Positions 6,450-7,328 of a DNA stretch of 40,995 nucleotides are shown one piece after another; positions within the stretch are counted from its first letter, which is position 1; each line of letters opens with the position of its first letter. Source of the stretch: Enterobacteria phage FtMidnight. A model generated the notes under the pieces. The model had not been told where the DNA came from and ran no database searches. It saw only the letters and a list, made by a program, of their open reading frames with translations. The DNA lies in the sequence record PP430152.1; one strand, 5' to 3'. The position numbers and the translations under genes are program-made.

Positions 6450-6836
6450 ATGAAACCTGCAAAAATTCTGTATTTTGTGAACGGCAATGCGCCAAAGGCT
6501 GAAGATATACAAGCCGCTGCTGAACTTGCGGCAACTGTTGTTTTTCGCAATGCCCGCGCTGTTCCCGGTGAACAACATTCGCTTGAAATTTGTGATGGTG
6601 TAACCGGCCACGTTCCGCCCATTTATGCAAAAGCGTTCCCGACTGCTGAAGAAGCGATTGCCAAGAAGAAAGCTGAATTGGCCGCACTTTCTTCAAAGGT
6701 TGGTGACAAGCCCGCGCCAAAGGCTGCAAAACAAGCCCCAAAGCCCGCGCAAGCAACCAAGGCTGAAGAACCGGCACAACCGGCAAAACCCCAAGCCCCG
6801 GCAGCGCCCGCCGCTTGGAACCCAAACAAACCGTAA
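6450..6836 (+). CDS. hypothetical virion protein with Pro/Ala/Lys-rich low-complexity C-terminus (possible decoration protein)
   Basis: 128 aa; RBS AAGGAA; C-terminal KPAPKAAKQAPKPAQATKAEEPAQPAKPQAPAAPAA. Confidence 0.4.
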   Translation: MKPAKILYFVNGNAPKAEDIQAAAELAATVVFRNARAVPGEQHSLEICDGVTGHVPPIYAKAFPTAEEAIAKKKAELAALSSKVGDKPAPKAAKQAPKPAQATKAEEPAQPAKPQAPAAPAAWNPNKP

Positions 6837-6848
6837 GGAGCAACCGCC

Positions 6849-7328
6849 ATGCAACGTATTATCTATTTCACTGAAGATGCAGTACCAACCAGCGGCGAAC
6901 TTTCCGCAATTGAAGACCTGAACGCTTTTGTAAAAAAGCAATATGAAGTTCTTGTGCGAAACCGCAAAGAATCGCAACTTTACGGCGCTGGTGCTGAATC
7001 GCTCGACTTCAAAGCCGGTACGCCGCCCGATGGTTATGGCGAAGTACCCGCTTGGCAATACCCTGAACCTGCTGGTATTGAAGCCAATCAAGCCATTGTT
7101 GAAAACGGTGACACGCTCGCCATTACTGATGAAGATGGAAACGAAGCTGATGCAACCGTTTCTGTTTCTGAAAGTACAATTACTGGCATTGTGCTTGAAG
7201 GCACTACAACCATTGTTGAAAACGGCTTTGTTTTTGAAGGCGTTACAGGCGCTGGTTCAGCAACTGTTGCAACCGTTACTGTTGTTGATGGTGTTATTAC
7301 CGCCATTGCTTGCAGCGAACCGGGTTAA
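6849..7328 (+). CDS. hypothetical virion protein; N-terminus paralog-like to the preceding ORF
   Basis: 159 aa; RBS AAGGAG; N-terminal IIYF...VP...VLVRNR resembles ILYF...AP...VVFRNA of the 6450 ORF; Thr/Val-rich beta-like C-terminus. Confidence 0.4.
   Translation: MQRIIYFTEDAVPTSGELSAIEDLNAFVKKQYEVLVRNRKESQLYGAGAESLDFKAGTPPDGYGEVPAWQYPEPAGIEANQAIVENGDTLAITDEDGNEADATVSVSESTITGIVLEGTTTIVENGFVFEGVTGAGSATVATVTVVDGVITAIACSEPG

Follow-up and report, generated by a model that had tools for sequence, protein, structure and literature searches.

A pair of paralogous capsid decoration proteins has been described in the Pectobacterium podophage PhiM1, in which cryo-electron microscopy (cryo-EM) shows gp43 spanning the two-fold axes of the capsid via an N-terminal helix-turn-helix, the 'alpha-claw', with a poorly resolved forearm projecting outward, and in which gp44 is a shorter paralogue consisting of the alpha-claw only (PMC11440229). 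Hoc, pb10, N4 gp17 and phi29 gp8.5 were named in the same work as comparable surface proteins (PMC11440229). The subject here is two adjacent genes, designated A and B, in the 40,995-nucleotide (nt) sequence of Enterobacteria phage FtMidnight (PP430152.1), which is referred to as the window. The pair, which lies between the genes for the major capsid protein and the head-tail adaptor Ad1, resembles known decoration-protein pairs such as the alpha-claw/alpha-paw proteins of PhiM1, but has a different anchor and one partner, the gene A product, that is apparently not found in the virion.

Like gp43 and gp44, A and B are separately expressed paralogues with a common N-terminal region and a C-terminal projection in one of the two only, and the beta-module of gene B is homologous to the forearm of gp43. 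The anchors differ, as the alpha-claw dimerises on two-fold axes, whereas the N-terminal domain (N-domain) of A and B is predicted to have a beta-alpha-beta-alpha-beta topology, so that the alpha-claw motif is not found in the gene B N-domain. Furthermore, gp43 and gp44 are both present in the PhiM1 virion, and FtMidnight is a siphophage with a capsid protein of a family other than that of PhiM1. T4 Hoc and T5 pb10 share with the relatives of gene B the combination of a capsid-binding domain (putative in the B-type proteins) with outward Ig-like or fibrous domains. Gene B of the window differs from Hoc and pb10 in having no Ig-like domain and an anchor for which no relation to any solved decoration protein was found.

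The direct orthologues of A and B are gp12 and gp13 of the Septimatrevirus phage Kakheti25, which lie at the corresponding place, flanked by the capsid and adaptor genes; the Kakheti25 locus differs in that gp13 lacks the second beta-module and that B is far more diverged than the flanking genes. A further point of comparison for gene A is lambda gpFI, a protein of about 130 amino acids (aa) that is not known to be present in virions. It has been described as an assembly chaperone that binds the capsid lattice of the prohead and helps the terminase-DNA complex to dock (PMC4856287). Like gpFI, gene A follows the major capsid gene and precedes the head-tail joining genes, its product is of similar size, and it is undetected in the virions of relatives, as expected of a protein of the gpFI type.

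With modest confidence, we favour the reading that A and B are ancient paralogues with a shared docking N-domain, gene B encoding a virion surface protein and gene A a transient assembly factor.

The N-terminal domain shared by genes A and B

The two open reading frames (ORFs) and their N-domains are as follows.

6450..6836, + strand: gene A, whole ORF of 128 aa, consisting of the N-domain, a helix, a low-complexity spacer and a C-terminal Trp tip (phrog_9062)
6450..6647, + strand: N-terminal alpha/beta domain of gene A, residues 1-66, common to gene B (hhalign, AlphaFold, joint alignment)
6849..7328, + strand: gene B, whole ORF of 159 aa, consisting of the N-domain, a linker and two beta-modules (phrog_10405)
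6849..7046, + strand: N-terminal alpha/beta domain of gene B, residues 1-66, paralogous to that of gene A (hhalign, hidden Markov models (HMMs), AlphaFold)

A preliminary description of the window had reported two adjacent capsid-proximal ORFs that share an N-domain of ~60 aa and then diverge, and had interpreted them as diverged tandem paralogs. The observation was confirmed: the ORFs exist as described, and the sequence bears out the N-terminal peptides that were quoted and the C-termini described as Pro/Ala/Lys-rich in A and Thr/Val-rich in B. Between the two window sequences themselves the resemblance is slight. BLASTP of A against B gave no alignment at E<=100, and a Smith-Waterman alignment of the full lengths (26 residues aligned) scored 39 against 28.8+-4.8 for shuffled sequences, p=0.04. 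When the alignment was limited to the first 70 residues of each protein, p fell to 0.003 against shuffles. The pairwise similarity thus beats shuffled controls, the comparison that the preliminary description had named as able to refute it, if only weakly and by a modest amount.

The homology of the N-domains is unambiguous at the level of the families. An hhalign comparison of 18 A-type with 12 B-type proteins gave a probability of 98.1% and an E value of 1e-13, with 64 columns aligned (residues 3-66 of A and 2-72 of B). An HMM built from A-type N-domains alone matched 9/9 B-type proteins tested with 12-35 bits (19.6 for B of the window), and the reciprocal HMM from B-type N-domains alone matched 9/9 A-type proteins with 24-37 bits (23.8 for A of the window). 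The PHROG profiles of the two families likewise cross-match in both directions. In the joint alignment of A and B, F9 and P56 are invariant and R33, E46, D49, G53, Y59 and P64 nearly so, and a second shared motif, CDGVxGxVPxxY in A and D[FY]xAGTPPxxY in B, extends the common region to ~65 aa, somewhat longer than first reported.

AlphaFold models, each made from the alignment of its own family, predict a beta-alpha-beta-alpha-beta arrangement for both N-domains with a predicted local distance difference test (pLDDT) score of ~90. In the gene A model (pLDDT ~90) the strands are at residues 5-10, 29-34 and 50-53 and the helices at 17-24 and 57-62, and in the gene B model (pLDDT 87-93) the strands are at 2-8, 32-38 and 54-57 and the helices at 15-27 and 39-45. 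A Foldseek search of a library of viral structures with the gene A model retrieved B-type proteins, the cross-matches having a probability of 1.0 between what are predicted structures. The two-clade tree described below completes this set of results.

The opposite view, that the N-terminal resemblance arose by chance or from composition and the genes are unrelated, could draw on the BLASTP result and the full-length shuffle value. It is refuted by the hhalign, reciprocal HMM, PHROG and Foldseek matches together with the common predicted topology, and 1,363 family representatives have the domain at their N-terminus; its probability is considered negligible.

The N-domain has no Pfam family, and no solved structure containing it was found in profile and structure searches of the PDB. 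No annotation or paper was found that links the A and B families or gives either of them a function.

The C-terminal region of gene B

Gene B matches phrog_10405, 'virion structural protein', with an E value of 6.1e-23 (residues 2-116 against positions 4-122 of the 124 in the profile), and is 41% identical to Kakheti25 gp13, which is annotated as 'found by mass spectrometry in mature virions'. After the N-domain it consists of a short Pro-rich linker followed by two copies of a Thr/Val-rich beta-module of ~37 aa.

7083..7196, + strand: beta-module copy 1 of gene B, about residues 79-116 (internal repeat; match to PhiM1 gp43)
7197..7325, + strand: beta-module copy 2 of gene B, about residues 117-159 (family alignments; absent from Kakheti25 gp13)

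The internal repeat scores 46 against 24.5+-4.7 for shuffled sequences (z 4.6, p 0.0006). The second copy is outside the phrog_10405 match and accounts for the 42 residues by which B of the window exceeds Kakheti25 gp13. The number of copies varies in the family, being one in gp13, two in the window, three in the relative P0122 and about five in another, P0164.

The profile of the B family matches one solved protein, the alpha-paw decoration protein gp43 of PhiM1 (8vb0_J), with an E value of 3.6e-8. As HMMER flagged compositional bias in this match, the forearm was re-scored against 1,000 shuffles and gave 33.3 bits against -10.7+-2.8 (z 15.6), the reversed sequence scoring -11.2. The similarity that survives shuffling is confined to the forearm, residues 54-179 of gp43; one stretch of the HMMER match extends back to residue 9, with a low score and high compositional bias. 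In P0164, the N-domain is followed by a forearm 62% identical to that of gp43 over 116 residues (gp43 64-179), and the P0164 gene is in the same slot as gene B, immediately followed by an adaptor gene of the same type. One projecting module is thus carried by two unrelated anchors, the alpha-claw and the N-domain. That the two have this module in common is the best available argument that the gene B N-domain is also a particle anchor.

Another chain, m of PDB entry 9s9b ('Minor structural protein', 104 aa), was a weak match to the B beta-module (E 1.1). Its C-terminal motif VKNGDTLPVDG-GGSVKVTVANGAITKVVYTA looks convincing, and the chain may carry a beta-module.

Relatives of gene B were gathered from annotated phage genomes, and several different domains were found behind the same N-domain. 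Some B-type relatives have a Big_2 Ig-like domain (35.4 and 23.8 bits, cutoff 22.8), for which the Pfam scan gave no match in gene B of the window. Others, of 466-485 aa (L067 1315 onward and L072 2924 onward), carry a GDSL/SGNH hydrolase (Lipase_GDSL_2, 46.8 bits, cutoff 32.9) and a further C-terminal domain. The C-terminal domain of the RcTitan type, for which no credible Pfam or PDB relative was found, also occurs on a B-type N-domain. Two proteins, P0149 (482 aa) and P0150 (854 aa; L089 4001-6565), have two tandem B-type N-domains before a large C-terminal region, and these tandems hint at a domain that may work in pairs or as a dimer. P0150 occupies the slot between gene A and the adaptor gene, in the order capsid-A-x-adaptor. 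Given that the copy number of the modules varies and that Big_2, GDSL and RcTitan-type domains share one N-domain, the C-terminus of B is regarded as exposed and exchangeable, and the B-type family has the hallmark of an anchor for interchangeable cargo on the outside.

The preliminary description had proposed both proteins as candidates for decoration or head-fibre proteins. For gene B this proposal has gained ground from the detection of gp13 in virions by mass spectrometry (MS), the gp43-like forearm and the relatives with Ig-like and esterase domains. Gene B very probably encodes a virion surface protein of modular build, and in the reading favoured here this protein is of the decoration or head-fibre type.

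A placement at the neck has to be weighed here, as B is always found immediately upstream of the Ad1 adaptor gene. Gene B could then be a neck or collar fibre present in 6-12 whisker-like copies, its N-domain docking on the portal/adaptor region and gene A using the same site transiently. Esterases are unusual in the capsid-adaptor slot, such enzymes being usually found on tail fibres or spikes, and variants that bear enzymes such as the GDSL esterase are commoner on tail or neck appendages than on capsid shells, as this placement would have it. However, the forearm is shared, with up to 62% identity, with a protein that cryo-EM places on the two-fold axes of the capsid, and display by Ig-like domains is characteristic of capsid decoration proteins, among them Hoc and pb10, which the work on PhiM1 cites (PMC11440229). 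The structure closest to the window capsid protein (8xb6/9k4g, ~50% identity, E 1.4e-95) is that of Acinetobacter phage SH-Ab 15497, as assigned by recovering the capsid sequence from the alignment followed by tblastn, and the portal-vertex structure of this phage, which has a diverged A-like gene and no B gene, includes no chain of this family. A neck fibre is considered possible but unlikely.

In a close relative of the window, L011 (IMGVR_UViG_3300028601_000007), gene B has a 1-nt insertion in a G-run at about 3079-3090 (TATGGG in place of TATGG; about 7030-7040 in the window), which truncates the product at 64 aa, just past the N-domain. The insertion could have arisen in assembly, as an error, or could be a knock-out of the display part that occurs naturally. 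P0121, a near-identical protein encoded on another contig, is intact.

The spacer and Trp tip of gene A, and its non-detection in virions

Gene A matches phrog_9062 (function unknown) with an E value of 4.8e-51 over residues 1-127 (positions 1-132 of the 134 in the profile) and is 69% identical to Kakheti25 gp12; 218 homologues were found. In the AlphaFold model residues 1-83 are confident, with a long helix at 66-83, and residues 91-118 are disordered. The family alignment shows a conserved 'VGDxPAPK' past the helix, then a spacer that is very variable in length and composition, and finally the following tip, in which W123 is invariant.

6807..6827, + strand: conserved C-terminal tip PAAWNPN of gene A, including Trp123 (family alignment)

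Of the 78 A-type proteins, 62 have a tip of the form A-[PA]-A-W-x-P-N among their last nine residues, and several that deviate are cut by contig ends; of the 42 B-type proteins, one has such a tip. The combination of spacer and conserved tip had been missed in the preliminary description. In the A-type proteins the region past residue 64 is 48-110 aa long and Ala/Lys/Pro-rich, and its net charge is +1.8+-3.1 with a range of -15 to +6.

Homologues of gene A are often annotated as 'DNA polymerase III (subunits gamma and tau)', for example in OR733342, PV641625 and LR743530. This identity was rejected, as gene A has 128 aa, no Pfam match and no ATPase domain, and it is almost certainly the Pro/Ala/Lys low-complexity tail that gave rise to the name.

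The notes on Kakheti25 proteins record that the scaffold was found in proheads and that gp9, gp11 and gp13-gp17 were found in virions. The orthologue of gene A, gp12, carries no note of detection by virion MS, whereas its five downstream neighbours do, although normal tryptic peptides can be read from the sequence of its N-domain. In phage phiAxp-1, the A-like orf45 (AKJ71370) is not on the list of proteins detected by virion MS, which does include its two neighbours, the capsid protein (AKJ71369) and the adaptor (AKJ71371). The papers on Loki, MMDA13 and the Rhodobacter phages contained no relevant virion proteomics. In SH-Ab 15497, for which capsid and portal-vertex structures have been deposited (8xb5/8xb6/9k4g), the sole member of the N-domain family is gp12 (L087 3501-3773), a diverged protein of 90 aa (16 bits) that ends in a short acidic tail and lacks the Trp tip. 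No PDB entry contains this gp12 as a chain. The gene A product is probably no stable component of the virion, and the earlier proposal of a decoration or head-fibre protein did not hold for A in this respect.

A reading closer to that proposal would have both A and B as stable capsid decoration or head-fibre proteins, with the A tail as flexible surface 'hair' and A either missed by proteomics or lost in purification. A and the virion protein B have the docking domain in common, a disordered PA-rich tail would escape cryo-EM, and the MS data are sparse. Set against this, the low-copy adaptor, head-closure and terminator proteins of Kakheti25 (gp14-16) were all detected and gp12 was not, and the A-like orf45 of phiAxp-1 was likewise undetected. 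The folded N-domain of a true decoration protein should give density, yet the diverged A-like protein of SH-Ab 15497 was not modelled, and a Trp tip that is deeply conserved behind a variable spacer suggests that it binds a partner and is no passive hair. This reading is judged improbable.

Distribution and evolution of the family

Using a gene A alignment, 76 loci were collected from IMG/VR and, together with the window, were classified by the ORFs between the capsid and adaptor genes; as the survey was seeded with gene A, it is biased to phages with A and underestimates the frequency of B alone. Among the complete loci, 30 have the order capsid-A-B-adaptor, 25 have capsid-A-adaptor and in three B precedes A; two B-type genes are found in single loci. 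Gene A without any B thus makes up ~45% of the complete loci (25 of 55-60). It is also found alone in Loki (GenBank) and in phiAxp-1 (gene table of its paper), while Serratia phage Otaku (GenBank) has B only, a 56-aa ORF in Otaku having been rejected as a mini-A (2.5 bits).

Since so many complete loci, as well as Loki and phiAxp-1, have A without B, gene A must have a function that is independent of B. This bears on the suggestion that A is a chaperone or heterodimer partner of B, the N-domains pairing and A delivering B and then leaving. The genes are adjacent and have a domain in common, and the tandem N-domains of P0149 and P0150 suggest that the domain may work in pairs. However, the A-only loci and phages stand against it, A is still present beside the tandem-domain P0150, and Otaku has B without A. 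A partnership of this kind is considered very improbable.

In a neighbour-joining tree of 106 distinct N-domains, one clade holds 38/38 B-type N-domains and, in addition, a Big_2-bearing protein for which the A model had given the slightly better score, and all 67 remaining A-type N-domains form the other clade. As the tree has two clean clades, A-type and B-type, it points to a single ancient duplication and not a recent local one, which sharpens the earlier reading of the two genes as tandem paralogs.

In 22 loci with both genes, the capsid protein is on average 70% identical to that of the window and the adaptor 57%; the N-domain averages 59% in A and 40% in B, and A is better conserved than B in 22/22. 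In the Septimatrevirus loci, the capsid protein is ~83% and the adaptor 80% identical to those of the window, and B only ~40%. Because B is diverged to this extent where the capsid protein is so similar, it appears from these identities to be a fast-evolving or horizontally exchanged cassette in an otherwise conserved head module.

A profile search of 1.84 billion representative proteins identified 1,363 clusters with the N-domain at E<=0.001, 540 of them at E<=1e-10. The domain is almost always located at residues 1-70, in proteins of 75 to 854 aa, and the clusters include phages of Pseudomonas, Xanthomonas, Acinetobacter, Escherichia and others, therapeutic Septimatrevirus phages among them. 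One match, P0247 (2,231 aa, 12 stretches), was a false positive due to BspA-type leucine-rich repeats. The start of gp13 of the Rhodobacter phage RcSpartan (L003 1447-2064) is probably annotated too far upstream, as it gives a protein of 205 aa, whereas the homologues and the N-domain alignment begin 16 codons downstream, giving 189 aa starting with MPQRITFF.

The hairpin between the capsid gene and gene A

The spacer of 63 nt that follows the capsid gene includes a stem-loop.

6397..6426, + strand: 11-bp GC-rich stem-loop in the spacer between the capsid gene and gene A (minimum free energy (MFE) -20.1 kcal/mol, z -3.35)

Of 69 related loci (L011-L086 range), 68 also have a hairpin with an MFE <= -15 between these genes, its sequence varying and its position being kept, and the equivalent site in Loki is annotated as a rho-independent terminator. 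The hairpin of the window has a weak U-tract and was not flagged by a simple terminator scan. It is likely to be an attenuator or terminator that sets the ratio of the capsid protein to the proteins downstream, or a hairpin that stabilises the mRNA. Its retention in nearly all of these loci suggests that less of A and B is produced than of the capsid protein. Much lower expression would suit a low-copy part such as the neck fibre considered above. A lower level fits a sub-stoichiometric role in general and does not separate the capsid from the neck.

Proposed roles of the two proteins

In the reading favoured here, A and B would descend from one ancient duplication, both having kept the ~65-aa alpha/beta N-domain. 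This domain would dock on a conserved part of the phage head, and we infer that the lattice of the capsid protein is the most likely site. In gene B the N-domain would serve as the anchor and the C-terminus as an exchangeable display part that faces outward; in the window this part would consist of the two modules like those of the gp43 forearm, and in relatives of one to five modules, Big_2, a GDSL/SGNH esterase or other domains. In gene A the docking domain would be followed by the helix, the disordered Ala/Lys/Pro-rich spacer and the conserved Trp tip (A-P-A-W-x-P-N). Gene A would most likely act transiently in head assembly or DNA packaging as a tether, with one end on the head and the Trp tip on a second partner. 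The idea of a tether comes from the better conservation of A relative to B, the frequent presence of A without B, and the two conserved ends joined by a floppy spacer. That gene A is a transient assembly factor with the same docking domain as B is a speculative proposal.

The likeness of gene A to lambda gpFI is drawn with low confidence, as a possible analogy and not as membership of one family. The gene A family profile matched no PDB chain at E<=1 and showed no similarity to gpFI, and in this comparison with known systems Foldseek with the gene A model gave nothing at E<=0.001.

Several observations weigh against the roles proposed here. The non-detection of A is negative evidence from two modest MS datasets, and that of phiAxp-1 is noisy, as it lists a helicase and a recombinase too. 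SH-Ab 15497 gp12 is diverged and short, and its absence from the models says little about a typical A protein. Gene A shows neither sequence nor fold similarity to gpFI and its spacer is not consistently basic; a conserved basic DNA-binding tail as in gpFI was considered for A and is unsupported, given the net charge of the A-type tails. For gene B, the C-terminal half of the model has a pLDDT below 50, and the gene adjoins the adaptor gene as well, which bears on placement at the shell or the neck.

A more specific form of the proposal, which we regard as doubtful, is that the N-domain is a previously undescribed capsid-lattice-binding fold, used in B as a permanent display anchor and in A as one end of a non-virion tether that recruits the terminase, portal or scaffold. 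Gene A would then be a functional analogue of gpFI that shares its ancestry with a decoration protein.

Genome setting and neighbouring genes

The window is the nearly complete genome, of ~41 kb, of a Septimatrevirus-like siphophage, with ~73% nucleotide identity to the Pseudomonas phages P8749 and Kakheti25 and 97% to the IMG/VR relative L011. The gene order of the head module is portal, MuF-like head protein, scaffold, major capsid protein, gene A, gene B, Ad1 adaptor, head-closure, tail terminator and tail tube. The location of A and B between capsid and adaptor genes, as given in the preliminary description, agrees with the family matches of the two neighbours.

5410..6387, + strand: major capsid protein gene, upstream neighbour of gene A (PF20036 Gp13-like, E 6.8e-124; phrog_247)
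7334..7852, + strand: head-tail adaptor Ad1 gene, downstream neighbour of gene B (PF20557 DnaT_2, E 1.2e-50; phrog_477, E 5.3e-59)

The mechanical list of ORFs has both genes starting with TTG, the capsid gene at 5350 and the adaptor gene at 7310. The family matches and homologues begin at ATG 5410 and ATG 7334, respectively, which are likely to be the true starts. Shine-Dalgarno-like sequences are located 8 nt 5' of the ATG of gene A (AAGGAA, 6436-6441) and 8 nt 5' of that of gene B (AAGGAG, 6835-6840). The antisense and alternative-frame ORFs within 6445-7356 had no PHROG matches, and no RNA family with a credible score was found across the region of the two genes.

Significance for head modules of related phages

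Gene A is a conserved and unstudied gene among the core head genes, and its spacer and Trp tip offer a testable handle on a step of head assembly or packaging. The analysis also corrects the recurring misannotation of its homologues as 'DNA polymerase III gamma/tau'. The rapid mosaic evolution of gene B suggests a role in interaction with the host or the environment, which present comparisons of these phages ignore. If the N-domain, which is spread over >1,000 protein clusters, is sufficient by itself for anchoring to the capsid, it would offer a compact display scaffold of natural origin, one that is already fused to repeat fibres, Ig-like domains and an esterase.

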